From Nitrospirota bacterium (GTDB lineage: Bacteria; Nitrospirota; UBA9217): a stretch of DNA of 64,000 nt. The stretch lies in the NCBI GenBank assembly GCA_035623825.1, contig DASPSR010000024.1:18555-82554 (forward strand), written 5' to 3'. How positions within the stretch are numbered: position 1 is the stretch's first letter; each line of letters starts with the position of its first letter. Of this stretch, positions 47,548-64,000 are shown in pieces. Below the pieces are notes generated by a model. The model was not told the origin of the DNA and searched no databases. It saw only the letters and a list, made by a program, of their open reading frames with translations. The translations under genes were made by a program, and so were the position numbers.

Positions 47548-47917
47548 ATAATAAATAAGATAAAGAAATGTTTCATTATATTCTCATAACCTGACTCATT
47601 AGCATTATGATAGCACGGTTGTATGTTGCCAGACCTTTTTAGACACATTTTTTGAAAAACTTTGCACTCTAGAGCTGACCTGATCTCTTGTTGATGTCCT
47701 AGCTAGCACGATAAACGTCTCCAAATTATTCAGGGCAAGCTGGCGGAGTCCCAACTGTTCGAGATTAAAGCGATTCTCTGAAGCATTATATCCTATTCGG
47801 CTTGAGCAGCAAGGCTATTCCTACCATTGTAAATTCTATTTACATCAATACTTTAATTCTGATAGACTGCAAATGACCTCATAATCTAATACCATCTCCC
47901 CAAGGAGAAATACGCCC

Positions 47918-50900
47918 ATGCAACAGAGAGGCCTTCGTCTGTTCTTTATCGTATTTACCGCATCGGGCTTTGCTGGCCTCATCTATGAATCCATTTGGAC
48001 CCACTATCTAAAGCTGTTCCTGGGCCATGCCGCCTATGCTCAAGCTCTTGTCCTTGCTGTGTTCATGGGAGGCATGGCAATAGGTTCCCTACTCTGCTCA
48101 AGATATTCAGCTCGTCTGGGCAATTTGTTGATCGGCTATGCCGTCGTCGAAGTGATCATCGGCATCTGTGCGATTGTCTTCCATCCTCTTTATGCCCAAT
48201 TCATCGATTTTGCGTATACGACGCTCATACCGGAACTGGGCTCCCCTCTCGCGGTAGCAATTTTCAAATGGACCGCGGCAAGCCTTTTAATTCTACCCCA
48301 GTCCATTTTGCTCGGCATGACGTTCCCCCTCATGACCGCCGGCCTCATACGGAGAATGCCGCAGCTTCCTGGTTCCATCGTGTCGATGCTCTATTTTACT
48401 AACAGCATAGGCGCAGCAATTGGAGTCTTGGCAGCAGGGTTTCTCTTCATCGGATGGGTCGGTCTGCCGGGAACGCTGGTCATTGCAGGATTAATCAACA
48501 TCGGTGTGGCCGTGGTCGTTTGGCTTGAGGATAAGAAAGGCCGAGCCTATCAACCGGAAATCCGTCCTGCCATAGGCATCTCTCCATTAAACACCACGTC
48601 CCGGTTAATTTATACTATTTTTCTTCTCATCGCCCTGCTGACGGGACTCTCCTCGTTCATTTATGAGATCGGATGGATCAGGATGCTCAGCCTCGTACTG
48701 GGCTCTTCTACCCATGCCTTCGAGCTTATGCTGAGCGCATTCATCACGGGCATCGCCTTCGGCGGTTTATGGATCAAACGGCGTATCGATTCCCTCGATG
48801 ACCCACGGCACTTTCTCGCGCTGGTGCAGGTTGCGATGGGGATGCTGGCCCTCGCAACCCTTCCCGTTTACGGCGGCACCTTCAACGTCATGGCATGGCT
48901 GATAAGAAACCTTCCAAGATCGGACACGGGCTATGTGCTCTTCAATGTCTCGAGCCATGCCATAGCAATGGTCATCATGCTGCCGGCCGCTTTCTGTGCA
49001 GGCATGACTCTTCCCCTCATTACCACGACACTCCTTCGCAGCGGGACGGATGAACGAAGCATTGGCGCAGTCTATGGATTCAACACGATCGGATCCATTC
49101 TTGGCGTCTTTATCGCCATCCACTTGGCAATGCCTCTGCTTGGCCTCAAAGGCATGATCATCCTTGGAGCCGGTGTCGACATTGCGCTTGGGCTTGGGCT
49201 GGCATGGTGGGTGATCCCCTCCTGGCGTATCCCCATGGCGTATACGACCATGGGAGTCATTGCTCTGCTGCTCCCGATGTTCCTGGTGAAGCTCGATCCC
49301 GGCAAAATGGCCTCAGGTGTTTACCGATTTGGGTTGTTGCCCGAAAAGACCACGAGAGAGGAGATCGTCTTTCAACGAGACGGGAAAACAGCCACGGTAG
49401 TGACCACAAGGATAGAGCAATACATGTCGATCAAAACCAACGGAAAATCTGATGCAATGATCCAGTTAACCGGGAGCGGCCACTTGGGGGATGAGGAGAC
49501 CATGGTACTGTTAGGTGCTATTGGTATTGTTCTTCGGCCTGAAGCCAGGACAGCGGCAATTATTGGATGGGGCTCAGGGCTAACCACCCACACCCTGTTG
49601 ACAGACCCGCGCATCGACAGCGTTGATACCATTGAGATCGAACCGGAGATGATTAAGGGAGCAACCTTCTTTGGTTCGCGTGTACGGCTGGCATATGAGG
49701 ACCCCCGCAGCCACGCAAGGATTGAAGATGCGAAGGCCTATTTCTCATTCTATAACAAAAAATATGATCTTATCATCTCCGAGCCTTCCAATCCCTGGGT
49801 CAGCGGTGTGGCAAGCCTTTTTACAAAAGAGTTTTACTCTCGCGTACGGGGATACTTAAATGAAAACGGCCTGTTCATTCAATGGCTCCAACTCTATTCC
49901 ATTGACATGCCTCTTGTTGCTTCAATCATGAAAGCACTTTCGCCTTATTTTTCCGATTATATCATCTACGCTACAAATTCTACCGACATGCTCGTTGTTG
50001 CGTGTCCCGCAGGGAACATACAAGGGCCGGATGCTTCCTTCTTAACCATGAAGAACCTTATGAATGAACTGAATAAAATTGATATCATGGGCCTCCCGGA
50101 TATTAATGTTCGGGTGATAGGGAATAAAGCGACGCTCTCTCCGCTTTTTGAAAGTTACCGTATAGCGGCCAATTCGGATTACGAGCCTATTGTGGATCTT
50201 TATGCTGTAAAAAGCCGTTTTTTCGTATCGAAGGCTAATGATGCGTTTAATAGTACCAAGTTTGATCGACTCCCTTTTTTAGAAATGCTCGGGAAGTACC
50301 ATGTAAATCTCAATACAGCTAACGTGACATATTCAGCCTATCCGAAATCATTCAGGATTCATTTTGCAAACATGCTTTATCAGTACCTTTTAAAGGGCCA
50401 GATGCAATGGAACCATCCAGAAGCGCCGCTGCGCGACGAGAGCCGGACGACCATTATCCATGCCAAACAGGTCCTCATGCAAGCGTGTACGGAAGAAATC
50501 ATGGAATCAGAATGGTGGCAAGCAATGCTTCATATCATCGCAAATTTCGCCCCCTACTGGTCACCCGAACAGCTAGCCAGCCTTTTGCGTAACATCGAAA
50601 CCTCACCCTGCGCAAAGCGCTTTTCTGTCTCCCAACATGATTTTATTGCTCTGATCAAAGCAGTGGTGGAAAAAGACCCCGCACGCATGGTCACGTACTC
50701 AAAAAAACTGTTGGAGCAGATGGGGAATAATGTACTCGATGCAGACCTTTTAGAATACATATTATCCGCAGGCATACTGGGAGATTTGGCGGCAGGCAAC
50801 GTAGAGGAAGCAGATCTTTTGTGGAAAACATACGGCCCTCTTTTGCCAGAAAAAAATGCACAATCACTAACAGTGCGAATCTTGGTGGCATGCCTCTCTT

Positions 50901-50941
50901 CGGGTGGGCAAGCATCGCCAGCCATGGGTCATCAACCGTAA
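47918..50941 (+). CDS. Fused MFS-like membrane domain / spermidine synthase-like methyltransferase
   Basis: SGFAGLIYESIW, LGMTFP, IGWGSGLT, IEIEPEM, YDLIISEPSNPWVSGVASLFT.EFY. Confidence 0.9.
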   Translation: MQQRGLRLFFIVFTASGFAGLIYESIWTHYLKLFLGHAAYAQALVLAVFMGGMAIGSLLCSRYSARLGNLLIGYAVVEVIIGICAIVFHPLYAQFIDFAYTTLIPELGSPLAVAIFKWTAASLLILPQSILLGMTFPLMTAGLIRRMPQLPGSIVSMLYFTNSIGAAIGVLAAGFLFIGWVGLPGTLVIAGLINIGVAVVVWLEDKKGRAYQPEIRPAIGISPLNTTSRLIYTIFLLIALLTGLSSFIYEIGWIRMLSLVLGSSTHAFELMLSAFITGIAFGGLWIKRRIDSLDDPRHFLALVQVAMGMLALATLPVYGGTFNVMAWLIRNLPRSDTGYVLFNVSSHAIAMVIMLPAAFCAGMTLPLITTTLLRSGTDERSIGAVYGFNTIGSILGVFIAIHLAMPLLGLKGMIILGAGVDIALGLGLAWWVIPSWRIPMAYTTMGVIALLLPMFLVKLDPGKMASGVYRFGLLPEKTTREEIVFQRDGKTATVVTTRIEQYMSIKTNGKSDAMIQLTGSGHLGDEETMVLLGAIGIVLRPEARTAAIIGWGSGLTTHTLLTDPRIDSVDTIEIEPEMIKGATFFGSRVRLAYEDPRSHARIEDAKAYFSFYNKKYDLIISEPSNPWVSGVASLFTKEFYSRVRGYLNENGLFIQWLQLYSIDMPLVASIMKALSPYFSDYIIYATNSTDMLVVACPAGNIQGPDASFLTMKNLMNELNKIDIMGLPDINVRVIGNKATLSPLFESYRIAANSDYEPIVDLYAVKSRFFVSKANDAFNSTKFDRLPFLEMLGKYHVNLNTANVTYSAYPKSFRIHFANMLYQYLLKGQMQWNHPEAPLRDESRTTIIHAKQVLMQACTEEIMESEWWQAMLHIIANFAPYWSPEQLASLLRNIETSPCAKRFSVSQHDFIALIKAVVEKDPARMVTYSKKLLEQMGNNVLDADLLEYILSAGILGDLAAGNVEEADLLWKTYGPLLPEKNAQSLTVRILVACLSSGGQASPAMGHQP

Positions 50942-50954
50942 TTGCTTGATAAGC

Positions 50955-50996
50955 TTGGCAACAGCGAGAGGATTCGGACCCATGACCTTCGGGTTG
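50955..50996 (-). repeat. Degenerate 3' fragment of tRNA-fMet (att-like relic)
   Basis: TTGGCAACAGCGAGAGGATTCGGACCCATGACCTTCGGGTT aligns with the copy at 51166. Confidence 0.6.
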
Positions 50997-51120
50997 TTAG
51001 ATGACTTTGGGGCCTTCTACCACAGCCCGAAGCCTTTCCGCCACTCTTTCATCTATCAGATTTCTTGTAATAAAAAGAAATCGGTATCTCCTGCTCACCT
51101 TCCAACAGTTTAACAGGGGG

Positions 51121-51157
51121 ATAAAAAAAGGGCTACAGCAGACTGCTGTAACCCTTA
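51121..51157 (-). terminator. Intrinsic terminator following the tRNA 3' fragment
   Basis: Minus strand AAGGGTTACAGCAG TCTGCTGTAGCCCT TTTTTT, just after ...CCCGCTACCA. Confidence 0.8.
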
Positions 51158-51165
51158 GAATTGTT

Positions 51166-51215
51166 TGGTAGCGGGGAGAGGATTTGAACCTCTGACCTTC
51201 GGGTTATAGATCCGA
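51166..51215 (-). repeat. 3' half of initiator tRNA-Met (anticodon stem to CCA); attR-like displaced fragment, not a full tRNA
   Basis: Minus strand TCGGATCTATAACCCGAAGGTCAGAGGTTCAAATCCTCTCCCCGCTACCA: T-loop GGTTCAAATCC and CCA end present; D-arm and 5' acceptor absent. Confidence 0.85.
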
Positions 51216-51254
51216 ATATCTTTTTTAGTTATTGAGCGATTTCAGTTTGTCCGG

Positions 51255-51285
51255 ATGACCTTCGGACCTTTTACCCGAAGGTCAT
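51255..51285. repeat. Palindromic recombination-site-like element
   Basis: A-TGACCTTCGGA-CCTTTTA-CCCGAAGGTCA-T. Confidence 0.8.
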
Positions 51286-51381
51286 AGCAGACGAAAGGCG
51301 TAATTTCTTCTTCAGAAAATGAACCCACCTGACATTTGCGCTTCCAGAGGCCTTTGTTGCTGAGAACGCGGTGCCGTTTAA

Positions 51382-51672
51382 CTATTTGTCAGTGAGCACT
51401 TCAAACCCTTTGAGATAATCCTCATACTCAATGGGTGACTCTATTCCCAACTCGGCCAGCAAATCGATTGTCTCGCCGACTGATAGATCCAGGGTCTTTG
51501 CCAGGCCTTCCAAGGATAGTTTCCCATCCCGATACTGTTTGAGCATTCGAAACTGCCAGCCCTGCTGAATAAGCTCCCGAGCAACCGCAGATCGTCCCTT
51601 ATTCTCTTGGATTGAAAGGTCATCAATGCGCTTCAGTTCCGAATTCTCAAGCCGCAAGCTAATAACTCCCAT
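51382..51672 (-). CDS. UPF0175-like antitoxin (RHH/HTH)
   Basis: ISLRL..SAVARELI, YRDGKLSLEGLAKTL; paired with a PIN gene. Confidence 0.75.
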   Translation of the reverse strand: MGVISLRLENSELKRIDDLSIQENKGRSAVARELIQQGWQFRMLKQYRDGKLSLEGLAKTLDLSVGETIDLLAELGIESPIEYEDYLKGFEVLTDK

Positions 51673-51674
51673 GT

Positions 51675-52172
51675 TTATTTCCTCCCCTCCTCCAAACGCT
51701 TCATCGCGTCCTCTATGATCCGCTTGTTGTATCTGCCGTACTGAACCAGCTTCGTTAGTTTTTCCTGCGCCAATGCCGATGATAGCTTATTCCGAGATGC
51801 CATATAAAACAAAAAGTGTATTGCCGTCAGAAACCGAAGCCCCAGCACCTTGCTTGCTCTTATGCTCGGACCGTCGTCGATGGCTATCGTATAATGATAT
51901 TTCCTAGATAACCACAAGGCCTCTGCTTCTCCCTTTTGAATGCGAAAATCCACTTGGAGTTTCTTGACCGCTTTTACCTCATCTGCCTTTTGGACGCTAA
52001 TCTTACGCTCTTTAATAAGAATAGAAATCAGTTCGGCGTCTGCCGTCTTCTTAACAAGTGCCTCTCTCTTCACCTCTTCTGGGACAATTATTTCGAACTC
52101 ATCCGATGCTTCACGAAGTAAGTTTACTTTTGCAAGCAATATAAGCGTTGAAGAGCCAAAGACGACTTTCAT
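51675..52172 (-). CDS. PIN-domain (DUF3368-like) toxin
   Basis: MKVVFGSSTLILLAK, IIVPEEVKRE, GEAEAL, IAIDD. Confidence 0.8.
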   Translation of the reverse strand: MKVVFGSSTLILLAKVNLLREASDEFEIIVPEEVKREALVKKTADAELISILIKERKISVQKADEVKAVKKLQVDFRIQKGEAEALWLSRKYHYTIAIDDGPSIRASKVLGLRFLTAIHFLFYMASRNKLSSALAQEKLTKLVQYGRYNKRIIEDAMKRLEEGRK

Positions 52173-52235
52173 GTTTACAAAATACTACATTTGTAAACAA
52201 ATGTCAAGGTTAGCAGAATGGCCGATGGGTAAATT

Positions 52236-52315
52236 TGGTAGCGGGAAGAGGATTTGAACCTCTGATCTTCATTATGACAACCAATTGCTAATGCCTTCGG
52301 TCTTCCTACCCGATC
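52236..52315 (-). repeat. Another tRNA-fMet 3' fragment plus degenerate palindrome
   Basis: TGGTAGCGGGAAGAGGATTTGAACCTCTGATCTTC (52236-52270), then ATGCCTTCGGTCTTCCTACCCGA. Confidence 0.75.
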
Positions 52316-52677
52316 CTTCAGGCGTTTTAGACTTTCTTGAAACTCCGGTAGATCTGCCCAAATTGTTAGCTTGGTTGGATGAGTGCGAAAAGCAGGTGGA
52401 TCTGTCGCAGCCTTTAGCAACCAGAAGAAAGGAAAAGCGGCATGTAACTCATTATGATGTGCGATGTCTGTTTGTCAGTACTAGTGAAACCGTGAATGCC
52501 ATAACAGTTGACATCAGCAATTACGGATTCTGCCTCAAGCTTGTAGTTCCGCCGAGGGCAAATGAAACAATACATATCAGTACGACGCATGCTATTATAG
52601 CGTGCCATAACGCATTGGTTCGGTGGGTGAGCAAAAACCCGGATGGCTCTTACCTGGCAGGATTATCCTGTCAGTAA
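52285..52677 (+). pseudogene. PilZ-domain protein, apparently N-truncated (receiver remnant)
   Basis: RRKEKR and DISNYG PilZ motifs; preceded by GVLDFLETPVDLPKL, resembling a receiver-domain C-terminus; the ORF starts inside a repeat site. Confidence 0.6.
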
Positions 52678-52712
52678 AAATGGCGCGCTATCTCTGTTGT
52701 ATTAGAAGTAAA

Positions 52713-53315
52713 TCAATCTATCGCGTTCAGACGACCCTTAAGATATGCTATTTTCGTCTCAAGGCCATGTCTAACCTGAGGCTCATCCACATCTACACCG
52801 TCAAGATAGATAGTATAAACGATACGGGAAGATCTGATAACCATATGGAATTGAGTATTGTCTCTGTAGAGATAAATCTCATCTGCCCGGTAAAGACCTG
52901 GAGCCACTGTTTCTTCACTTCCAAAAACTGATGGTGATGGTTCAAAGTTCATCCGCTTAAAAAGTTCACTGGCCTGTTCTGTTGATGACAGGATGTTCAC
53001 TAAACACAGATACTTTACTTCGCCTCCGTCTGGGCTCATTAGTATCGTGCCGTACAATCCTCTGAATCCAACCTTTTCTGAAGACATTTTAAAAAAGATA
53101 TAGGGCACATGATTTGGGGTCATCTTGTGTTGATATTTTTCTGTATGAAATTGCTTGATCTCTTCGGGTAGGAAAAGGTACTCACGATCTGCAGAGGTCA
53201 CCTCATCCATTTTTGAACAGGCTGTAAGAATGATCAGCGACAACAGTAAGATGACAGGAGCGCTAAATTTCTTCCCTTTCCTGCTGACAAAGACATTTTG
53301 TGTTACTTTCCTCAT
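52713..53315 (-). CDS. Hypothetical lipoprotein
   Basis: LLLSLIILTAC lipobox; 200-aa ORF. Confidence 0.65.
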   Translation of the reverse strand: MRKVTQNVFVSRKGKKFSAPVILLLSLIILTACSKMDEVTSADREYLFLPEEIKQFHTEKYQHKMTPNHVPYIFFKMSSEKVGFRGLYGTILMSPDGGEVKYLCLVNILSSTEQASELFKRMNFEPSPSVFGSEETVAPGLYRADEIYLYRDNTQFHMVIRSSRIVYTIYLDGVDVDEPQVRHGLETKIAYLKGRLNAID

Positions 53316-53486
53316 GATACGACAACTTCCGTCTAGCGTAACATATTCACCATGTGAAATTCAGCAATTGAACATTCTATATTAAGGATACCACAAATCC
53401 CAGGCTTCAGTCATGAAGGACCCCTGTAAGGACAAAAAGTGCTCCAAACAATGGAACTATTCGAGAAAATGTGGCTTTCATTTTTC

Positions 53487-53519
53487 AATGACATTCGGGT
53501 TATGTAACCGAAGGTCATT
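53487..53519. repeat. Palindromic recombination-site-like element
   Basis: AA-TGACATTCGGG-TTATGTA-ACCGAAGGTCA-TT. Confidence 0.8.
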
Positions 53520-53731
53520 TGAAGACAATGCGCGAGTTAAACACAGCGATGTACGACTGTGAAGTTATTTTCCGGTTGTAATATTTGTTATTTTATTAGC
53601 TAACAAATACCCATTTCACCTGAAACATTGATTTTTACGACCTTTCAGAATCTCAATATTTCATCTCAAAATGTACCATTGGTGGGGAAAATCCGCTGTA
53701 ACGGCCATCATGGCTGGCGTTGCAGCCCTTG

Positions 53732-55039
53732 TCATCGGCTTCTAAAAAGATAACGTAGCGATTCAACCGCCGTGCGACCAGAGTATTCGTGAACTGGTTT
53801 CACGATCTTTTTTAGAAGCATCGCACCCAGTCCTGATACGATGGCCGCTGCTCCGATGACAGAACAACCGACGGTCCACCCTACTTCAAAGCCGTACGAC
53901 TTGGCATAGGATATTGCAAGCGCAGTGATGACGGTCGGTCCTATCAGACCGCCGATACCTTTTGCAGTATACATAACACCGTAGTTGGACGATAAAAATC
54001 TGTCACCATAACGGTCCGCAGTAAGTGGCGGGAAAAAAGCAAACATCGGCCCGGTACAGAAAAAAGCCAACGTTGCAACGGTCATAAACGCATACGCGTT
54101 ATTCGAGACAAACGGCAGGAGGATGTACAGCAAACCACAAGCCACAAAATCAAAGAGCATTGCATTTTCTCTTCCAATCTTGTCGGAAATCACACCCCAG
54201 ACAATTCTCCCAAGTCCGTTTGCTGCCGTGAGCAACGTAAAGGTAATGATAAACATTGCTGAAGGTATTTTGTAGTCACTGGCCATGAGCTTGAGATTAG
54301 GTGTAAGGAACATATAACCAATGGCCATGAGTACAAACATACCATAAATTAGATAGAACTGGCCGGTCCCGCACATCTCCGCGGGATTATAGCATATGTC
54401 TTCACCTTCTTTTGGAACGGTTGGTCCCGTAGCCTCTTCGCATGCTGCAATGTCAGGTGGTCTGAGCACCTGAGCTACCAGAAGCAAGACTGCACCAAAC
54501 CCAATGCCGGTATAAAGGAAAGCGGTTTTGTAGCCATAATTCGAAATACATAAGGCTATTAACCATCCCAATAGAGCTGCGCCTGAACCGAATCCGCAAG
54601 CCATTATCCCCGAAGCGGTGCCTCTCTTCTTTGGAAACCATTTCAGTGCTGTGGCAATGCCGCCCGTATAAATAAAACTTGCGCCGATACCAGCAACTCC
54701 GTAAAAAACGCACATGAAAATAATCTTATCCTGTGTGCCAATACCTCCCCATCCGGCTGCGACCAGTACTGCGGCAAGTGTGAAAAAAATCTTTACGCCG
54801 AACTTGTCAATCAAATAACCGCTCAGGGGACCCGCAAAGGTCATACATGCTATGAAAGTCGCAAATGCAACCTGAACCGCAGACTTGTTAAATGTCGGAT
54901 TGGTCTTCAGGATATCAGGAACAAAAAGAGCCCATGCATACTGAAGACTGGATATCATTGTCATTCCGAGTACGCCGGCTGCCAACATTACCCATGGAGT
55001 GTTCATTAACCTGGTTTTTACTGCGTCCCCATTTCCCAT
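53732..55039 (-). CDS. oxlT: Oxalate/formate antiporter family MFS transporter
   Basis: SSLQYAW.LF, KWFP.KRG.ASG, NG.GRI.WG.ISD.IGRE, NYGVMYTAKG; next to oxalate oxidoreductase genes. Confidence 0.85.
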   Translation of the reverse strand: MGNGDAVKTRLMNTPWVMLAAGVLGMTMISSLQYAWALFVPDILKTNPTFNKSAVQVAFATFIACMTFAGPLSGYLIDKFGVKIFFTLAAVLVAAGWGGIGTQDKIIFMCVFYGVAGIGASFIYTGGIATALKWFPKKRGTASGIMACGFGSGAALLGWLIALCISNYGYKTAFLYTGIGFGAVLLLVAQVLRPPDIAACEEATGPTVPKEGEDICYNPAEMCGTGQFYLIYGMFVLMAIGYMFLTPNLKLMASDYKIPSAMFIITFTLLTAANGLGRIVWGVISDKIGRENAMLFDFVACGLLYILLPFVSNNAYAFMTVATLAFFCTGPMFAFFPPLTADRYGDRFLSSNYGVMYTAKGIGGLIGPTVITALAISYAKSYGFEVGWTVGCSVIGAAAIVSGLGAMLLKKIVKPVHEYSGRTAVESLRYLFRSR

Positions 55040-55190
55040 TTTCCCCTCCAATATCTCCCTTTTACTTTATTTTGAGGACCAATTCCGAGATGTACTCCGC
55101 TTTACTGGGTGGTAATTTCCCCAACGCATCGAGGCGAGGGGGAATCCCTCTCGCGAACACTTGCTCGACAGGGAGGACAGAGAACACGCC

Positions 55191-57405
<2,215 letters not shown>

Positions 57406-57419
57406 GATAAGTTCCTCCC

Positions 57420-57749
57420 CTAAAAAGGTTTCTCCAAACGAACCACCCCATCCTCAAAGTCAAGCTCTGGAACTGCGCTGAGGGCTTCGGACGGGCACTC
57501 ATGAATGCAGATCTGACAACCCTTGCAAAACTTCCAGTTCCATTCCATCACGTCATTCTTCTCATTGTATGCCCAGCAGGAATCGGGACAGGCAATATAA
57601 CAGGTGAGGCACCGGGTGCATTTCTCGTTATCGATAACCGGCCTCACAATGCGCCAATTCGATGTAATAAAGAGCTCTTGCTGCTTTACCGGAGCGGGTG
57701 TTATTGCCCCGAATGGCACTTCTCTTTCTTTGGGAACTTTAATCTCCAT
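57420..57749 (-). CDS. 2-oxoacid:ferredoxin oxidoreductase delta (2x4Fe-4S) subunit
   Basis: WR..RP, CTRCLTCYIACP, CKGCQICIHECP. Confidence 0.9.
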   Translation of the reverse strand: MEIKVPKEREVPFGAITPAPVKQQELFITSNWRIVRPVIDNEKCTRCLTCYIACPDSCWAYNEKNDVMEWNWKFCKGCQICIHECPSEALSAVPELDFEDGVVRLEKPF

Positions 57750-57802
57750 AATCTTATCTCCTTCCGATATTTATTCGGTTTTTATCCGATTTTCTTTTTT
57801 CC

Positions 57803-58441
57803 TTAACCACCCCAGGAGTACACTGAGCGGGATTTCCGGAACTTCTGGATCTTCACCTCATTGTAACCGCGGTCCATCCCGGCCACGTCACTTACAACCT
57901 TTGCGAGGGCCTCCTTTTTAACCATGCCAGACGCCTTTGCCATTGCTCCGAGAATAGGAGCGGCAATACCGCCCCCGATGCCGGCAGAGTCTACACCGCC
58001 TTCCGACCCGGAAAAATCAACGGTTTTAAGACCGGAGATGCCATCGGCATCTACCGTGGCAACGGCTCCGAGCACATCGGCGTTCGGAATGAACTGGAGC
58101 ATATAATCGATGGGACGGGCGGTATTAATGATCAAGAGGCCGCCTTCGGGCATGCCCCTCAACACATTGATCCCTTTTACAATGGTTGGTTCTGCGACGA
58201 CAACAACATCAGGATGGTCATTGGTGTAAGTATATTTCATTTCGATGTCTTCTTCGCTGATCCTGACGTATTTGCGCGTAGTGACCAAAACACGATCAGG
58301 CAGGTCCTCGTAATTGTCAAAGGCCTGCACAAATTTTCCCTCCGCCTCCGCAGCCTTGCCGAAGGCATTGGCGATATCACGACCTTCTTTGTCCATCACC
58401 ACCCCGCGGGTCCAAACGGTAATTTCGTAAACTTTTGCCAT
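57803..58441 (-). CDS. 2-oxoacid:ferredoxin oxidoreductase gamma subunit (corresponds to the N-part of OOR delta)
   Basis: EITVWTRGV, VQAFDNYEDLPDRV, YVRIS, LIINT; GGAGG RBS. Confidence 0.85.
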   Translation of the reverse strand: MAKVYEITVWTRGVVMDKEGRDIANAFGKAAEAEGKFVQAFDNYEDLPDRVLVTTRKYVRISEEDIEMKYTYTNDHPDVVVVAEPTIVKGINVLRGMPEGGLLIINTARPIDYMLQFIPNADVLGAVATVDADGISGLKTVDFSGSEGGVDSAGIGGGIAAPILGAMAKASGMVKKEALAKVVSDVAGMDRGYNEVKIQKFRKSRSVYSWGG

Positions 58442-58512
58442 ACCCACACCTCCAAAAAGTTTGTTCACAACAGGGACGGAATGACGTACCTACGTGCCCC
58501 ATGCACCGCATA

Positions 58513-59238
58513 TTATCGGCATTTCCCACCCCCTTTTCTCTTCTTGCCCACGCTTATCTCCTCTACCTGTTCTAAATGTCGAAGCATTGCCCGCCTCGCG
58601 GCAGCGCAGTCGCCTTTTTTGATGGCGGCGAAGACTGCCTCATGGCCTTTCAGCGATTTTTTTGCCCACTCTTCATTTTGCAGATACTGTTCACGGGTCT
58701 GCTCCAGAAGATCAAACAGCGCTAGGAGAAGACGCGCTAAGACACGGTTTTTCGCCATCCGTGCCAGCAGCGTATGAAAGTCGATATTAGTCACGGTGCT
58801 GTTTCCGCCGCCGGTAATTTGGTCTGCCTGCTGTTTAAGGACCGCCTCCATCTCGTTGATTTCCTCCAAAGTCGTATTTTCGGCAGCAAGCGATGCAACA
58901 TATGGTTCTATGATTTTGCGGATGAAAGAAATATCAAGGATATCGTCCTTTTCATGAAACAGGGCTGCTGCCAGCGGTTGCACGAGAGCCTCTTCACTGG
59001 AGGAGAGCACATAAGTGCCATTGCCCTGACGGCTTTGAACGAGCTTCATGGATTCGAGCGTACGGATGGCCTCGCGCACCGTGGCGCGGGACACCTTTAA
59101 TGTCTCGCCCAATTCCCGCTCGGTGGGGAGCTGATCGCCACGCTTAAGCCTTCCCTCTTCAATAAGTGTACGGATCTGCTCCACAATGTCTTCATAAGCT
59201 CGCTTTTTTTCAACTGCCTTTAACATGCCTGCACTCAT
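58513..59238 (-). CDS. FadR/GntR family transcriptional regulator
   Basis: GDQLPTERELG..LKVSRATVREA, G.GTYV, FCD domain DFH...HEAVF.AI...AM..HL. Confidence 0.93.
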   Translation of the reverse strand: MSAGMLKAVEKKRAYEDIVEQIRTLIEEGRLKRGDQLPTERELGETLKVSRATVREAIRTLESMKLVQSRQGNGTYVLSSSEEALVQPLAAALFHEKDDILDISFIRKIIEPYVASLAAENTTLEEINEMEAVLKQQADQITGGGNSTVTNIDFHTLLARMAKNRVLARLLLALFDLLEQTREQYLQNEEWAKKSLKGHEAVFAAIKKGDCAAARRAMLRHLEQVEEISVGKKRKGGGKCR

Positions 59239-61342
59239 CACACTCCCGCACCTTCTTGATGGCGGACGTAAAATGGTCACGTGTTACTGCCAGTTTTTTT
59301 GTGTCCTTGTCTTGTGATTCATGAATCAGTTCGGATATAGCCGTCATGGTTGCTGTCTTGCAGATGAACGCGATATGAGAGCCAACAAGTCCGTCGGTGA
59401 CCGCGGCCAACTGAGCCAAGTCTGCATCGGCACTGAGAGGTTTATCCTTGGTGTGCGCCTTAAATATTTCCAATCGCTCATGCTGGTCTGGAAGCGGGAA
59501 CTCAAGGATAAAATCAAGACGTCCTGCACGTAATAAAGCGGGATCAAGTAGGTCTTTCCGATTTGTGGCCCCGAGGACGACGACTTGGGAGAGATCGCTC
59601 AAATTGTCGAGTTCATTAAATAGCTGGCTTGCCATCCGTTCCACAACCCCTGCCTCGCTCACACCGCCCCGCTTCGGCACCAAGGCATCTATTTCATCAA
59701 AAAACAGGATGCAGGGAGCCGACTGCTTCGCTTTTTTAAAAATCTCATGGAGCGCTTTTTCCGATTCTCCCAGCCATTTTGAGAAAAGGATAGGACCGCT
59801 TATGGAAATGAGGTTTAGTCCGGTTTCGCCGGCCAGCGCCTTTGCCATGAGCGTTTTCCCGGTTCCGGAAGGACCGCTGAAAAGAATTCCTCTCGGCGGT
59901 GAAACGTTGCCGGCGCTGAAAAGGTCAGGATGCTTGTGAGGCCAATCGACAATCGACAAGAGCGTCTCTTTGATCGCATGCAGTCCGCCGATATGTTCCC
60001 ATGTTAGGGTTGACCGCTCGGTAAAAAATTCACGGGTTGCCGTGGGTTCAATTTCGCGGAGCGCATTTAAAAAGTCTTCCATGGTGACCTGCAGATGATC
60101 AGGGGGCGCGAGGAAAGAGTCGAGATTGCCTTTTCCGCAGAGAGCGAGGTATCTCCGCAACGAGACCATGCCTGCTTCTTTACAGAGGGCCTCTAAATCT
60201 GCTCCAACGAAGCCGTGGGTAATCTCAGAAATACGGTCGAGATCGACATTATCGGCAAGAGGCATTCGGTGGCTGTGAATTTTGAGAATGGCAAGGCGAC
60301 CGTCGGCATGAGGAACGGGGATTGAGATTTCTCGGTCAAAACGTCCGGGTCGCCGCAGGGCGGGATCGATCATTTCCGGAATGTTGGTTGCGCCGATAAC
60401 AATTACGTGGCCTCGTGGAACCATTCCGTCCATCAAGGCAAGGAGTTGGGCCACCACCCGTTTTTCAACATCTCCCAAGACCGCTGCCCTCTTCGGGGCA
60501 ATGGCATCGATCTCGTCGATAAAGATCACACTGGGTGCCTTGCGGGTCGCTTCTTCAAAGATTTCCCTGAGCCGCGCCTCGCTTTCGCCGTAGAATTTAT
60601 GGATTATTTCCGGTCCGTTGACCCTGATAAAATGAAGCTTGGTCTCGCCGGCAATGGCCTTTGCGATGAGGGTTTTCCCTGTCCCAGGCGGGCCGTAGAG
60701 AAGTATTCCTTTGGGGGCATCGATTCCCAGCTTCTTAAAGAGTTCTGCATTATGTAAAGGAAGCTCCACCATCTCCCGCACAAGTTGTAATTCATTTTTT
60801 AGCCCGCCGATATCTTCGTAGGAAACATGAGTAGCCGGCTCGTGCAAGTAATCGGGTTTTTTTAAAATGAAGCTCGTTTGCTGGTTAATGATGAGGGGGC
60901 CTGAAGGGGAAGTCGCTTCTACTTGGAAGAACCACTCTTTTCCTCCAAAGAGGGGAATATCGATTTTATCCTCCAAGAGGATTGGCCGTCCTTGGAGGAT
61001 TTTCCCGAAGAGTTCCATCTCATGCTCTTGGGGCAATGTTCCTTCACCATTCAATGGGTAAAGTACGACGCTAGTTGCCGTTGTGCGGGAGACCTTTTTA
61101 ATCTGTACCGTCATTCCGACATTGGTCTCGGCGTTTTCGCGAGTAAGGCTATCAATCTGAATGATGTGCTTGCCGCTCTCCTCGGGCAGGGTCCCAGTAA
61201 TCCGTGCCACAGTTTTTTTCTTTCCCGTGATTTCAATAAGATCGCCGAGTAAGGCATTTAGTGCTCTGATATCCTGGGGGTCAAGGCGGGCCAATCCCTT
61301 GCCGACGTCGTCGATTGGCAATTCGCTCACTTTTAGTTCCAT
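59210..61342 (-). CDS. CDC48/VCP-family double AAA+ ATPase
   Basis: N-domain DVGKG.ARLD; YEDIGGL, GPPGTGKT, DPALRRPGRFDRE; second AAA GPSGTGKT, FFDEID, GRLD; start 61342 or slightly upstream. Confidence 0.93.
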   Translation of the reverse strand: MELKVSELPIDDVGKGLARLDPQDIRALNALLGDLIEITGKKKTVARITGTLPEESGKHIIQIDSLTRENAETNVGMTVQIKKVSRTTATSVVLYPLNGEGTLPQEHEMELFGKILQGRPILLEDKIDIPLFGGKEWFFQVEATSPSGPLIINQQTSFILKKPDYLHEPATHVSYEDIGGLKNELQLVREMVELPLHNAELFKKLGIDAPKGILLYGPPGTGKTLIAKAIAGETKLHFIRVNGPEIIHKFYGESEARLREIFEEATRKAPSVIFIDEIDAIAPKRAAVLGDVEKRVVAQLLALMDGMVPRGHVIVIGATNIPEMIDPALRRPGRFDREISIPVPHADGRLAILKIHSHRMPLADNVDLDRISEITHGFVGADLEALCKEAGMVSLRRYLALCGKGNLDSFLAPPDHLQVTMEDFLNALREIEPTATREFFTERSTLTWEHIGGLHAIKETLLSIVDWPHKHPDLFSAGNVSPPRGILFSGPSGTGKTLMAKALAGETGLNLISISGPILFSKWLGESEKALHEIFKKAKQSAPCILFFDEIDALVPKRGGVSEAGVVERMASQLFNELDNLSDLSQVVVLGATNRKDLLDPALLRAGRLDFILEFPLPDQHERLEIFKAHTKDKPLSADADLAQLAAVTDGLVGSHIAFICKTATMTAISELIHESQDKDTKKLAVTRDHFTSAIKKVRECDECRHVKGS

Positions 61343-61398
61343 AATCAAGTAAGTGGTCCGGGAAATGGGCTTGTTGTTTGTACCACGCAATTTTTTAA

Positions 61399-61411
61399 AT
61401 GGTCAGACCAT
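61399..61411. promoter_or_regulatory. Putative FadR-family operator
   Basis: Inverted repeat ATGGTCAGACCAT (TGGT-N3-ACCA, FadR-subfamily pattern) upstream of the cdc48-fadR-oor operon. Confidence 0.7.
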
Positions 61412-61698
61412 ATGATGACTATATCACTTCTTCCTTTTTTGTCAAGGAAATATCCTTATTGACGTTGAAGCAGATGATGCCCGTCTGCTTGAATTTGTTG
61501 AAGTTTATATTCTTTGAAACCAGTAAACTTCTAATCTGTATTTGACACCATTACACCTGCTTTTAACCAATCGACAATGATAGGAGTCATTGACATGATT
61601 CCGCATCAGGCATATATTAATAAGCATGGAATACTGGATCCCAACCGATAATATCTTACGTTAAGCGATATCCGCTTAGCAGAATGAAGAGGAATAAT

Positions 61699-61809
61699 AT
61701 GGCGTCAGAAGGATATGTAGTTCTCGGAGGGGTACTTGTAATGGCTCTCTATGTCGCTCTCACTATCTATAGGGATAAACGCTCGAAGCATCCTCACAAT
61801 AAAAAATAG
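61699..61809 (+). CDS. Small single-TM protein (36 aa)
   Basis: GAGG RBS; MASEGYVVLGGVLVMALYVALTIYRDKRSKHPHNKK. Confidence 0.5.
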   Translation: MASEGYVVLGGVLVMALYVALTIYRDKRSKHPHNKK

Positions 61810-62240
61810 TTTGAAGAAAGTGAAAATCGTCGAATAAAACCCTATAATCTTCTTCGTCACAAAAAGAGATATTACTGATCAAATCAGAGTGCGGTAACAA
61901 GTTCATTTTATTTCATTGCATTTTGTGATATGTTTTTTATCGATAGACACTTCCCGTTTCTTTTGTTGTTGTCATTTGTTGTAACTTATAAACTTTCAAT
62001 TCGCATTCAACGGCGCTATTTGGACATAATTAGAAGGCGGGAATTTTGTGCTGGTAGCACTGCACGTTTCCAACCAGTAATCCTCACTGTTGCATAGCTT
62101 GATGACTATTTAGTTGTATATACTATGAATAAGCAGTAAGACAAACCCCATGGATAGTGCTACCCTGTGATTATTCGCAGAATATGTTACTACGGATCCA
62201 TAATCCGAAGCATAGGAATCCTATCCTCTCTCCTTCCCAA

Positions 62241-62280
62241 ATTTGAACCTCTGACCTTCGGGCTATGGACCCGAAGGTCA
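62241..62280. repeat. Perfect-armed palindromic site with tRNA T-arm remnant
   Basis: ATTTGAACCTC-TGACCTTCGGG-CTATGGA-CCCGAAGGTCA. Confidence 0.85.
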
Positions 62281-62599
62281 CTGATCCAAACGTTTATTGC
62301 ACTTTGATACGAAAGACACGTCAGGCGTTTTCTTGTTTTTTCGGAACCTCTCAGTCTCATGCCTATCAGGATTATCAAGTCCTTCGTCAAATTCGGAAAG
62401 ACTTCGCAGCCCAACTCCACCGGAAGAAGAGGGAAGTAAAGAGTCAAGAGGTTGAAAAAATTGAAAGTCAGGCATTTTCCTTGATGTGTTAGGACAAAAT
62501 ACACTCAAAAATAGGAAATTCTTACAATTACATTTCTGGCAGGCTCTTGTTATAGTGTAATCAAGAAAAGAGAAAATAAATGAAAAGGAGGAAAACAAA

Positions 62600-62845
62600 A
62601 TGCTTACGTACAATGGGGATCATAAGGTAGCTACAGTCGCCATGATGCTGGCGGGCCCGATCATCGGGTTGCTCTATGTGGTTTTCCTGCCAGTCATCGG
62701 CATCGCGACCCTGGCAGTAGTTGCAGGGCGGAAGGCACTGACAAGCGCAGTCAGCGTGGCCGGAAAGACGATTGCATTTGGGTGGAGGCCTGTGGAAGCG
62801 TATTTAGCAGGCAGAAAGAAAGAAAAGAAAAGGAACGAGAAGTAG
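62600..62845 (+). CDS. Small membrane protein
   Basis: AAGGAGG RBS; GPIIGLLYVVFLP...FGWRPVEAYLAGRKK. Confidence 0.75.
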   Translation: MLTYNGDHKVATVAMMLAGPIIGLLYVVFLPVIGIATLAVVAGRKALTSAVSVAGKTIAFGWRPVEAYLAGRKKEKKRNEK

Positions 62846-62950
62846 CTCTATCCGACCGCGGGCAAGGTGTGTAGCGTGCGCCTGGTGCAGTGAACCAACG
62901 AATGAAAGGGTGTGGATGGCACCCAAGATCTCAAGAAGGGGGAAAATACT

Positions 62951-63370
62951 ATGTATACCATGGTAGATTTTATTACACATGTAAAGGGAATCGAGTATAT
63001 CCTGTCGCTCCTCGCGATTGCCGGGTTTCTCGTTTTCTGGGAAATCCTGAAGCCGAGGCCGTTCAGGACGGTGGCCAACACCAGTGCGGATGACTTGGCG
63101 TATATCGAGCAGACGGGTGGATTGAAGAGCGTTGCGAAGAGCGTAGGCAGAATAGCTGCCGCGCCGTTCATCGGCCTCGCATATATTGCGATGCTGCCGG
63201 TGGGGTTCTTCGTTGCCCTGGCCGCAGCCATCGTCAACCTTGCCATGAAAGGCTTAGCGAGCATCGCAGGAAAGAGTGTGACCTTTGAGTGGAGGCCCGT
63301 GGAGGCATATTTAGCAGGCAGGAAGAATAAAACGGAGAAGGCCGGGACTAAGAAAGGCAGCGTGAAATAA
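62951..63370 (+). CDS. Small membrane protein with HmcD-like N-terminus and a paralogous C-domain
   Basis: MYTMVDFITHVKGIEYIL..GF..FW; APFIGLAYIAMLP...FEWRPVEAYLAGRK. Confidence 0.7.
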   Translation: MYTMVDFITHVKGIEYILSLLAIAGFLVFWEILKPRPFRTVANTSADDLAYIEQTGGLKSVAKSVGRIAAAPFIGLAYIAMLPVGFFVALAAAIVNLAMKGLASIAGKSVTFEWRPVEAYLAGRKNKTEKAGTKKGSVK

Positions 63371-63414
63371 GTCCCTAAACCAGGGAAGATTCCGCTAATT
63401 TTAAGTTACAAAAA

Positions 63415-63457
63415 TAAAAAGAGCCTCACTTGCAATTACAAGTGAGGCTCTTTTTTG
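63415..63457. terminator. Bidirectional intrinsic terminator
   Basis: AAAAAGAGCCTCACTTG CAATTA CAAGTGAGGCTCTTTTTTT. Confidence 0.85.
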
Positions 63458-63569
63458 GGAAATAGTTCGAACGATTTAACCCTCAGATTGCCTAAAGAAA
63501 CGTGCTAATAATCGAAAAAACAGGAGCAGGCACTAGCGCTATTATTGGCTCCTACCGTTTTGATACAAA

Positions 63570-63598
63570 TCCCATTCGGGTTTATTCCCGAAGGTCAT
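63570..63598. repeat. Palindromic site, left arm degenerate
   Basis: TCCCATTCGGG-TTTATT-CCCGAAGGTCAT. Confidence 0.7.
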
Positions 63599-63917
63599 CC
63601 ATTCAGCCTCAGCATATTTCTGTGATGGACAGCACTTTTGATAACAGACATTGTTAACAAACTCTCAACTTTATTTCAAATGGAAATATGGTATGAAGAC
63701 CCAGCCTGAATTCCACAACCTTCACCTACGAACTTTTTAAAAATTTAAATCTAATAGAATAACGACTATTTCCTGTAACTCACGAGTTGCCATTCTTGGA
63801 AACAGTCAACAGTTCTACAGAAAATTGTTATTTTTAAGCAGCCGTGTCGTTATCAACATCACCTACTAACTTTGATTTTGGTCAAGCGCAACTGTTAATA
63901 ATTTCAAGTTGAAACAT

Positions 63918-63976
63918 GCAGAACGCCGCCATGAGTGGCGCGTCTCTTACCAACCCTCTCGACGGTGTTGTTGGCC
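63918..63976 (+). other. Possible degenerate integron attC site
   Basis: GCAGAAC-GCCGCCATGAGTGG...CCTCTCGACGGTGTT-GTTGGCC; imperfect inverted repeat with AAC/GTT cores, ~59 bp. Confidence 0.4.
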
Positions 63977-64000
63977 ACGATGTTTCTTGACAGCAATGGA

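Follow-up and report, generated by a model that had tools for sequence, protein, structure and literature searches.

What kind of site is a short palindrome that recurs between gene modules and has the sequence of the initiator tRNA (formylmethionine tRNA, tRNA-fMet) in only one of its two arms? The question is raised by a 64,000-nucleotide stretch of a metagenome-derived Nitrospirota genome, called the window here (G000:C14:18555-82554, where G000 is this genome). Four such palindromes lie close to window position 64000, at which contig C14 ends. Positions below are those of the window unless a contig is named, and G001 is a sister species of the same genus. Our results indicate that the palindromes are derived from the anticodon stem-loop of tRNA-fMet, that they belong to an array present in both species and that their flanks have been exchanged. 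It is rather likely, although well short of certain, that they are binding and crossover sites (cores) of tyrosine integrases that target the anticodon loop, and that the array has grown by accretion and reshuffling of modules mostly lacking an integrase, with the enzyme acting in trans.

Palindromic cores and their tRNA-fMet origin

The cores are of the type TGACCTTCGGG-N7-CCCGAAGGTCA, their arms being 11-bp mirror images of one sequence. They start at positions 51256, 53489, 62252 and 63570, all intergenic (Table 1). A first-pass annotation, made from the letters of the window, had named these four palindromes together with tRNA half-sites as intergenic features. The positions proved correct, and the sites are in excess over shuffled and reversed controls; its wording implied that all palindromes are perfect, which holds for one of the four (core C). 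The arm TGACCTTCGGG with at most one mismatch has 11 copies in the window, whereas 100 shuffles averaged 1.32 copies and never exceeded 5. Nine copies had been named before as arms; the remaining two are at 34612 and 56703, the latter within the oxalate oxidoreductase gene.

In the whole genome (3.24 Mb, 67 contigs) there are 11 N7 palindromes with up to three mismatches in addition to core D, which has a 6-bp spacer; the 7-bp spacer is thus found in 11 of 12 sites. The reversed genome contains none, nor do three block-shuffled genomes (0, 0 and 0). Although 80% of the contigs in question is covered by open reading frames (ORFs) of at least 100 aa, 10 of the 11 N7 sites are outside such ORFs, and the exception (C12:76343) is within a 100-aa ORF that overlaps a non-coding repeat. 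Sites with up to three mismatches are located on six contigs (C14, C2, C12, C27, C11 and C59) and a site with four mismatches on C10. Scanning the genome and its relatives had been proposed together with the first reading; the motif is not confined to the locus, and the annotation had listed a scattering of sites over the genome as a possible refutation. Of the 64 genomes surveyed in the order, 56 lack the motif, seven carry 1 or 2 copies and G000 carries 11; the three other genomes of the genus have 1, 0 and 0. A count of 11 as compared to 0-2 in 63 relatives argues against a conserved regulon.

No tRNA was called by ARAGORN in the window. It holds three displaced tRNA-fMet 3' halves, all of minus sense and intergenic. 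Their intact homologues in relatives are tRNA-Met(CAT) genes that start with CGCGGGG, have the anticodon stem-loop GGGCTCATAACCC and are mismatched between positions 1 and 72. Bacterial initiator tRNAs are marked by such a start, this stem-loop and the 1/72 mismatch. Read in window orientation, the intact gene is CGACCTTCGGG TTATGAG CCCGACGAGCT. It follows that the core has tRNA sequence in its left arm and the counterpart of the anticodon loop in its spacer; the right arm, as the annotation had stated, is not tRNA. The left arm is identical to the tRNA half in 9-10 genomic fragments. These 9-10 tRNA-fMet 3' halves are distributed over three contigs of G000, each with about 20 bp of conserved downstream flank. 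Many spacers retain the tRNA-side TTAT(G) of the loop, and in fragments and cores alike tRNA identity ends within TTAT/N3. At its outermost base the arm tends to agree with the local tRNA: TGACC...GGTCA in G000 and CGA(C/T)C...GGTCG in G057.

The symmetric, non-tRNA arm has a counterpart outside the order. An exact 10+7+10 version of the palindrome is found in 61 stretches from 185,579 species genomes and in 2 viral contigs, 64 copies altogether, where a rough estimate that assumes uniform composition gives less than one by chance. Nine of the 64 copies run into a tRNA T arm on one side, and the genuine loop (CTCATAA or TTATGAG) is present in eight. Viral contig L064 reads TGACCTTCGGG CTCATAA CCCGAAGGTCG, with the T arm and acceptor end of tRNA-fMet after it; an integrase matching PF00589 (67.6 bits), the integrase profile used in all our searches, is encoded about 100 bp from this arm, loop and tRNA half. 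A symmetric non-tRNA arm is the usual look of the element-side core of an integrase targeting the anticodon loop, as seen beside the L064 integrase. The analogy to pdif sites (dif-like targets of XerC and XerD) or integrons, which had been drawn from this symmetry, is not needed.

Two observations were made on the copies outside the order. The element-side arm of L064 is in tandem duplicate just before the CTCATAA loop (L064:7077-7118, TGACCTTCGGGCTCC TGACCTTCGGG). In several gut genomes of Bacillota (loci L092, L095, L099, L122 and others) the palindrome has the loop GAGCTAC or GAGCTGC, is 92-93 nt from a tRNA-Met gene and is followed by T-rich sequence; this palindrome may be a conserved terminator rather than an attachment (att) site.

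The window stretch is also present in peat metagenome runs, of which X3, X6, X8 and X9 were compared as assembled contigs. Cores A and B are bridged by X6 contigs (51178-52263 and 53198-53832, respectively) and core C by an X3 contig (62145-63306), in each case with zero differences. Runs X3 and X6 are not marked as source of the assembly. Contigs of the runs break at tRNA halves, where depth is about 10-fold higher, and the loose ends at a tRNA half show many other partners, further palindromic arms included. Loose ends in X6 continue the tRNA half as GAGCCCGACGAGCTA, meaning that an intact tRNA-fMet gene exists in the community. An X8 contig that joins 52209 back to 51164 (depth 3.3, a single contig) was considered as a circle and rejected, since the tRNA half that follows the toxin-antitoxin (TA) module aligns better to the copy at 51166. 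Positions 52304-53656 are without cover in X8 and X9, which is no evidence of absence.

Exchange of flanks at the cores

The sister species G001 (10 contigs) has an array of the same kind. A full tRNA-fMet query matches it at 10 places, by the 3' part only and all on the plus strand of contig C5, from 1177 to 219769. A further fragment is at 133, the very start of C5, so that the array spans 220 kb from the contig end. Small modules are bounded by the fragments at 133, 1179, 2570 and 6094, and intervals of 38-82 kb are also present. As for the intact tRNA-fMet, it has not been assembled in G001. In G001 the element-side arm mirrors the tRNA arm imperfectly, with 7-9 of the 11 positions agreeing in 7 out of 10 junctions; the main difference between the junctions of the two species is that the mirrors are better in G000.

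We grouped the outward flanks of 44 sites or junctions into families (G000: 20 sites plus 8 tRNA-half junctions; G001: 16 sites), with likeness starting no further than 25 nt from the core. Flank family F1 (13 ends) consists of the tRNA 3' half. Four G000 palindromes adjoin F2, a non-coding arm about 180 bp long, one copy of which is 53518-53700. F3 has four copies in G001. F5, the right flank of core D, also has two copies in G001, and F8 (IntC), an integrase C-terminal fragment, has two copies there. All four combinations of two left and two right flanks exist in G001: F5/F1 at 1161, F5/F8 at 73137, F3/F1 at 158533 and F3/F8 at 78398. In these reassorted pairs the flanks are 74-98% identical and the spacers differ. 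Exchange exactly at a 29-bp core between flanks so diverged points to site-specific and not to homologous recombination. Flank reassortment is the strongest support for the cores as recombination sites; it was observed in a metagenome bin. It bears out the earlier proposal that the sites act as recombination cores delimiting integrase-free modules.

Comparison of the window with G001 reveals how one segment was probably added. The block that ends in the tRNA half at 51205 matches G001:C5:71397-71222 (85%; the same identity is obtained for 51121-51207 and G001:C5:71222-71397), and the counterpart of the block beginning with core D at 63571 is G001:C5:73164-73010 (72%). In G001 the two blocks are 1.6 kb apart with the core-D block first, and the order of core, flank, about 1.5 kb, terminator and tRNA half is the layout of a small integrated unit. 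In G000 the ends of the same blocks face each other across 12.4 kb containing four modules. Given the 1.6-kb spacing in G001, the 12.4 kb looks inserted at a core, as serial insertion would give. The prediction that module boundaries coincide with breakpoints in relatives would hold for this insertion; it does not hold for the left edge of the array, at about 50910.

A side observation concerns the gene next to that edge. Gene 47918-50941 (homologous part 47903-50910) encodes a 1007-aa fusion of a major facilitator superfamily (MFS) protein and spermidine synthase and adjoins the first tRNA fragment. The G001 orthologue (83% identical) is situated between the S4/pdxA genes and gltX, and the equivalent place in G000 (C28:8235/8245) retains only a 137-bp 5' remnant of the gene. 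It looks like a relocated single gene; neither end of the moved block has a core.

Contigs C10, C11, C12, C14, C2 and C20 of G000 share 25 scrambled patches of 300 bp to 2.9 kb with G001:C5:1-240 kb, a comparison made with no control contigs. The patch ends coincide mostly with gene ends and not with cores. The motif CATCCTGAAACA, found near several patch ends, was dropped as its enrichment is unclear (11-mer 5 as compared to about 1.5 expected, 10-mer 18 as compared to 6, on many contigs). On contig C27 (G000:C27:52409-69555) two G000-specific segments of about 8 kb part three short blocks that are within 2.8 kb in G001 and G002. The first segment has a palindrome (C27:60393) at its right edge and is bracketed by a direct repeat of 10 nt, GACATTCGTG; the repeat is suggestive, with a rough chance estimate of ~0.09.

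Modules and integrases

Modules between the cores are 0.2-9 kb long, with 2-7 genes on both strands and with a GntR regulator and a terminator of their own (Table 1). The contents given in the first-pass annotation stand for the oxalate operon, the PilZ domain (E = 4.8e-6) and the membrane pair with its hairpin. They are less certain for the TA-like pair and for the ORF next to PilZ. The 165-aa protein appears as DUF3368/PIN-like solely in an Atlas feature search (0.95, 193 shared features) and has no match in Pfam, NCBIfam or PDB sequences; the 200-aa ORF belongs to no known family. Matches of the 96-aa protein to UPF0175 (E = 0.0014) and RHH_1 (E = 0.0034) are both under the cut-offs. A homologue of the TA-like module adjoins the intact tRNA-fMet in G009 and is located elsewhere in G019 and G007. 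On contig C59 of G000 an ORF pair of like size (100 and 165 aa; compared by size only) is between a tRNA half and a palindrome (C59:1173-1976).

In the oxalate module, the alpha subunit of oxalate oxidoreductase scores above the cut-off (580.6 bits, cut-off 500), the beta subunit and the MFS antiporter-like protein below it (555 bits, cut-off 590, and 291 bits, cut-off 335, respectively). The membrane pair (window 62642-63358) is multi-copy, with further copies at C6:35500 and C65:165 in G000 and at least five in G001, none adjoining a core; the N-terminus of its second protein resembles HmcD (E = 1e-6, below the cut-off). Fragment 52236-52270 of the tRNA is 65 bp from the start of the PIN-like gene. 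The F2 arm is repeated beside the palindromes at C12:76343, C2:16487 and C11:12063 of G000. We rejected it as coding sequence because no frame is open in all six copies, and the peptide likeness across the palindrome stems from the DNA repeat.

Table 1. Cores, tRNA-fMet fragments and modules of the array (window positions unless a contig of G000 is named)
Feature	Position	Strand	Description
tRNA-fMet 3'-half fragment, diverged	50955-50993	-	ends in arm TGACCTTCGGG at 50983-50993
Terminator-like flank	51121-51165	-	adjoins tRNA-fMet 3' half 51166-51207
tRNA-fMet 3' half	51166-51207	-	tRNA identity stops within anticodon loop (TTAT/AGA); weak symmetric arm TCCGAATATCT next
Core A	51256-51284		TGACCTTCGGA CCTTTTA CCCGAAGGTCA; 1 arm mismatch
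Two-gene TA-like module	51382-52172	-	96-aa RHH/UPF0175-like protein and 165-aa DUF3368/PIN-like protein
tRNA-fMet 3'-half fragment	52236-52270	-	acceptor and T arm only; break before anticodon stem (TGATCTTCATT)
PilZ module	52285-53315	+ and -	PilZ-domain ORF 52285-52677 (+); 200-aa ORF of no known family 52713-53315 (-)
Core B	53489-53517		TGACATTCGGG TTATGTA ACCGAAGGTCA; 2 arm mismatches
Non-coding arm, flank family F2	53518-53700	+	about 180 bp
Oxalate module	53732-61390	-	MFS oxalate/formate antiporter-like; oxalate oxidoreductase beta, alpha, ferredoxin, gamma-like; GntR/FCD; CDC48-like AAA ATPase
Partial T arm	62238-62251		directly left of core C; AAATTTGAACCTC
Core C	62252-62280		perfect arms (0 mismatches), spacer CTATGGA; joined to partial tRNA T arm 62238-62251
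Membrane pair	62600-63457	+	small membrane-protein genes 62600-62845 and 62912-63370; hairpin and T-run at about 63417-63457
Core D	63570-63597		TCCCATTCGGG TTTATT CCCGAAGGTCA; 3 mismatches, left arm only; 6-bp spacer
Core D with right flank family F5	63570-63727		F5 at 63598-63727; homologous to G001:C5:73164-73010, there joined to integrase C-terminal fragment
tRNA-fMet 3' halves, C14	C14: 3121, 11582, 69509, 69719, 70789; partial 80795	one strand (6/6)	
tRNA-fMet 3' halves, C12	C12: 33627, 66957; partial 51789	one strand (3/3)	
tRNA-fMet 3' half, C59	C59: 1075		

Contig C14 encodes no tyrosine recombinase, in agreement with the first description of the modules as integrase-free. In the whole of G000 there are six PF00589 matches: two full-length Xer-like proteins (C9:137251 and C27:98873), one at the start of C20, whose G001 counterpart adjoins tRNA-Lys, and three fragments. 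The first 240 kb of G001:C5 have one match, beside tRNA-Lys, and two C-terminal fragments of 61 aa. The absence of an integrase and of an intact tRNA-fMet from the assembled locus is attributed to the end of the contig at 64000; the annotation had predicted both to the right of the window, beyond this end. About 50 bp at this end (63922-63974) match 1-3 places in each of many family genomes (80-87% identity); they have no Rfam match and hold only a short ORF, and are possibly the end of a repeat at which the assembly broke off.

Two integrase families are candidates for the acting enzyme. Members of the first, 422 aa long with a SAM_3 and a catalytic domain, are encoded about 100 bp from the intact tRNA-fMet in G069 and G061; no orthologue is present in the four genomes of the genus, and the sequence past the integrase gene (10 kb in G069, 20 kb in G061) revealed no displaced tRNA fragment. 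In G061 an inverted 13-nt copy of the tRNA-fMet anticodon arm is just past the integrase gene (C86:48929-48941); since the intact tRNA abuts the other side, inverted arms bracket the gene. In G009 a C-terminal remnant of this type, from box II to the catalytic Tyr, is located between the homologue of the TA module and the intact tRNA-fMet (C45, 10148-10459); the TA module appears to have replaced the remainder of the integrase gene there.

The second family is that of F8, a 61-aa fragment whose two G001 copies both begin at the core. F8 shares 69-81% identity with the C-terminal ends of integrases about 400 aa long from G057, G046, G076 and G061 and with shorter fragments from G060 and G049; matches occur in 7 of the 64 genomes of the order, G001 included. 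The G076 protein (396 aa) has Arm-DNA-bind_2, SAM_3 and catalytic domains. No piece of an F8-family integrase was found in G000. We considered whether attP could be located within an integrase gene of the F8 family, as in SSV-type archaeal elements, and rejected it: the partner flank F3 has stops in all frames, and full-length F8 homologues read TCTGGGGAAAACCCGGAATGGGT at the place of the core, with no tRNA-like left arm.

Origin of the array and its relation to known systems

The mechanism that we propose can be described as follows. One arm of the core would be tRNA (the 3' side of the anticodon stem, variable loop and start of the T stem), the 7-bp spacer would be the anticodon loop at which strands are exchanged, and the other arm a mirror site carried by the element. 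The window would be the tRNA-proximal part of a large accretion array, where successive elements, presumably entering as circles, inserted either at the tRNA or at cores that previous insertions had left, and every one of them pushed a tRNA 3' half or a core outward. Integrase genes would have been lost or never carried, the integrase having acted in trans, and later recombination between cores would have reshuffled the flanks. Some cores may still be active; core D with its 6-bp spacer is probably dead.

Several observations weigh against this interpretation. The spacers vary from site to site, and this would keep most present-day core pairs from recombining; core D is one spacer base shorter than its G001 homologue, which has the 7-bp spacer. 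Three of the four palindromes in the window have no adjoining tRNA T arm, unlike textbook attL and attR sites. The left boundary of the array lacks a core: homology of the upstream gene to its orthologues in relatives simply ends at about 50910. An X8 contig of a related strain departs from the reference at 62009, about 240 bp to the left of core C and not at it. No circular junctions, excision products or empty sites were seen among the run contigs. PF00589 has no match on C14, C12, C2 or C59, no dedicated or matching integrase has been assembled in G000, and neither has an intact initiator tRNA; the two CAT tRNAs of G000 (C41 and C66) differ from the fragments. The link of the F8 integrase family to a tRNA is weak apart from the core-adjacent fragments: the G076 gene is 9 kb from tRNA-fMet with no displaced fragment or tRNA repeat of at least 11 nt nearby, and the stretches around the G057 and G046 genes contain no tRNA. 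Outside the order 55 of the 64 exact palindromes have no tRNA arm and some are terminator-like, meaning that the palindrome alone is not proof of an att site. It is important to note that G000 and G001 are both metagenome bins, in which repeats can be misjoined.

According to a different explanation, the array is an integron-like capture platform: each module would carry one core comparable to attC, and an integrase beside the intact tRNA-fMet would insert, excise and shuffle modules, making the array a working store and not an island graveyard. The short and integrase-less modules would fit, as would the small modules on the tRNA-proximal side in G001, the perfect palindrome kept beside a decayed T arm at 62252, the reassorted flanks, the TA module with its same-sized counterpart on C59 and the scrambled patches (0.3-2.9 kb) that site-bearing contigs have in common with the G001 array. 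Against it, the platform integrase was found in none of the four genomes of the genus, spacers differ, modules have their own regulators and terminators with genes on both strands, intervals of 38-82 kb occur in G001, the patches were compared with no control contigs and the run contigs contain no excision product. We regard such a platform as unlikely. The broader idea of a tRNA-anchored cassette system is likewise unlikely; in such a system a trans-acting heterobivalent tyrosine integrase would capture, stack and reshuffle small modules without an integrase over at least 200 kb, each module carrying one palindrome that imitates the tRNA-fMet anticodon stem-loop. If it were true, the system would be a functional analogue of integrons that arose from tRNA-targeting integrases.

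Host recombination could be suspected as well, with the palindromes being dif-like targets of XerC and XerD (pdif modules) and their likeness to the tRNA being secondary. The 11-N-11 architecture, the 6-bp spacer of core D and the two Xer-like recombinases of G000 agree with this, but the spacer is 7 bp in 11 of 12 sites, the arms are one sequence mirrored instead of distinct XerC and XerD arms, they match tRNA-fMet and are physically continuous with tRNA halves, and all four genomes of the genus encode Xer proteins while many sites are found in G000 only. This makes the Xer explanation quite improbable. Still less credit can be given to structural hairpins (terminators or elements like repetitive extragenic palindromes) or a regulator operator with tRNA fragments nearby by coincidence. 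The intergenic location of 10 of 11 sites is what one would expect of them, and so are the copies elsewhere without a tRNA arm, some of which in Bacillota have T-runs 92-93 nt from tRNA-Met. Yet no T-run follows the window cores, 63 relatives do not keep the sites at orthologous positions, the arm sequence is that of the tRNA half and flanks reassort at the cores. A search of 50500-64000 against Rfam at E up to 1 found no family over the cores or the F2 arm; the only match, to sau-5971 (24.8 bits, gathering score 90), was taken as chance. Finally, the contigs of the bin could be joined chimerically at repeated tRNA halves. The genome is a bin of 67 contigs and run contigs end at tRNA halves, where depth rises; cores A, B and C are nevertheless bridged without differences by X3 and X6, and the second species shows the same architecture in an assembly of 10 contigs. 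An artefact is the least probable of these explanations, and a very improbable one.

The array, for which accretion at anticodon-loop cores is the interpretation that we prefer, is of interest for several reasons. Its cargo includes working metabolism, namely the oxalate oxidoreductase operon together with a transporter and a regulator, and a TA-like pair. The array may show how an uncultured peat bacterium builds its flexible genome, by recombination at one tRNA-derived core and with no resident integrases. Island finders that require an integrase per island would miss such arrays. If the cores are active, the defined sites, the two candidate integrase families and the natural recombinant junctions provide material for testing integron-independent cassette capture. 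The first-pass interpretation is thus partly supported: it was right in kind and over-reached in its analogy.

Among the known systems, the anticodon-centred class of tRNA-integrating islands and prophages, reportedly distinguished by Williams in 2002, is close in the geometry of its site. Our array shares with this class (class A of Islander) the crossover in the 7-nt anticodon loop between symmetric arms, the displaced 3' tDNA in gene orientation (6/6 on C14, 3/3 on C12 and 10/10 on G001 C5 on one strand) and an element-side arm that mirrors the tRNA arm, as in L064 beside the integrase. It differs in that class A has an integrase for each island, whereas here 9-10 (G000) or at least 10 (G001) fragments go with no cognate integrase, and several cores have no tRNA arm at all. 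The Islander study assigns 2083 of its 3919 islands to anticodon-centred att sites, the most frequent class, requires an integrase of its own for each island and counts only 4 arrays of at least three islands (PMC4383910). The anticodon loop has been described as a sublocation with flanking symmetry, and 19 bp around the loop as enough for integration of ICEAfe1 (bioRxiv 10.1101/2020.11.02.365908).

Integrons consist of integrase-less units in arrays between imperfect palindromes, TA modules included, and the array described here likewise combines integrase-less units, imperfect palindromes and a TA module. However, no IntI or attI-Pc platform was found (there is no integrase on the contig), the units have 2-7 genes on both strands with their own regulators and are not promoterless single-ORF cassettes in one orientation, and the palindromes are 11-7-11 cores of the double-strand type and not attC hairpins. 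In pdif/XerCD systems 11-bp arms, distinct for XerC and XerD, surround a 6-bp spacer and sites alternate in orientation. The 11-bp arms around a short spacer and the small modules with TA genes are shared; the 7-bp spacer, the identical mirror-image arms made of tRNA sequence and the chromosomal tRNA array are different.

Similar in its history is the accretion of cis-mobilizable elements (CIMEs) with ICEs (integrative and conjugative elements) or IMEs (integrative and mobilizable elements) in streptococci. According to the CIME model, elements decay to att-flanked, integrase-less forms and newcomers integrate into resident att sites (PMC5704250). In our array, segments without an integrase are delimited by att-like cores at which flanks have been exchanged. 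Att-flanked elements that lost their integrase, insertion of new elements into a resident att site, tandem stacks and gene capture would be common to both; the streptococcal stacks have two or three elements at the 3' ends of genes (PMC5704250), whereas our array has numerous modules (some shorter than 1.5 kb) at an anticodon-loop core and belongs to another phylum. The tRNA-seeded islands of Prochlorococcus, built by tycheposons, contain successive integrations, scattered partial tRNAs and integrase fragments (bioRxiv 10.1101/2020.12.28.424599). The same paper describes tRNA seeding, including one tRNA-Met(CAT), older elements pushed inward and metabolic cargo, as in our array. The hallmark genes that define tycheposons, a deep-branching tyrosine recombinase with a replication module among them, were not found here in a search limited to PF00589, and tycheposon att sites are given as tRNA segments of about 40 nt and not as 11-7-11 palindromes. 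A literature search of incomplete coverage found no description of integrase-less cassette arrays at tRNA-fMet. The best reading of the array is that of a cassette-like variant of tRNA-island accretion, similar to CIMEs or tycheposons and not to pdif modules or integrons.

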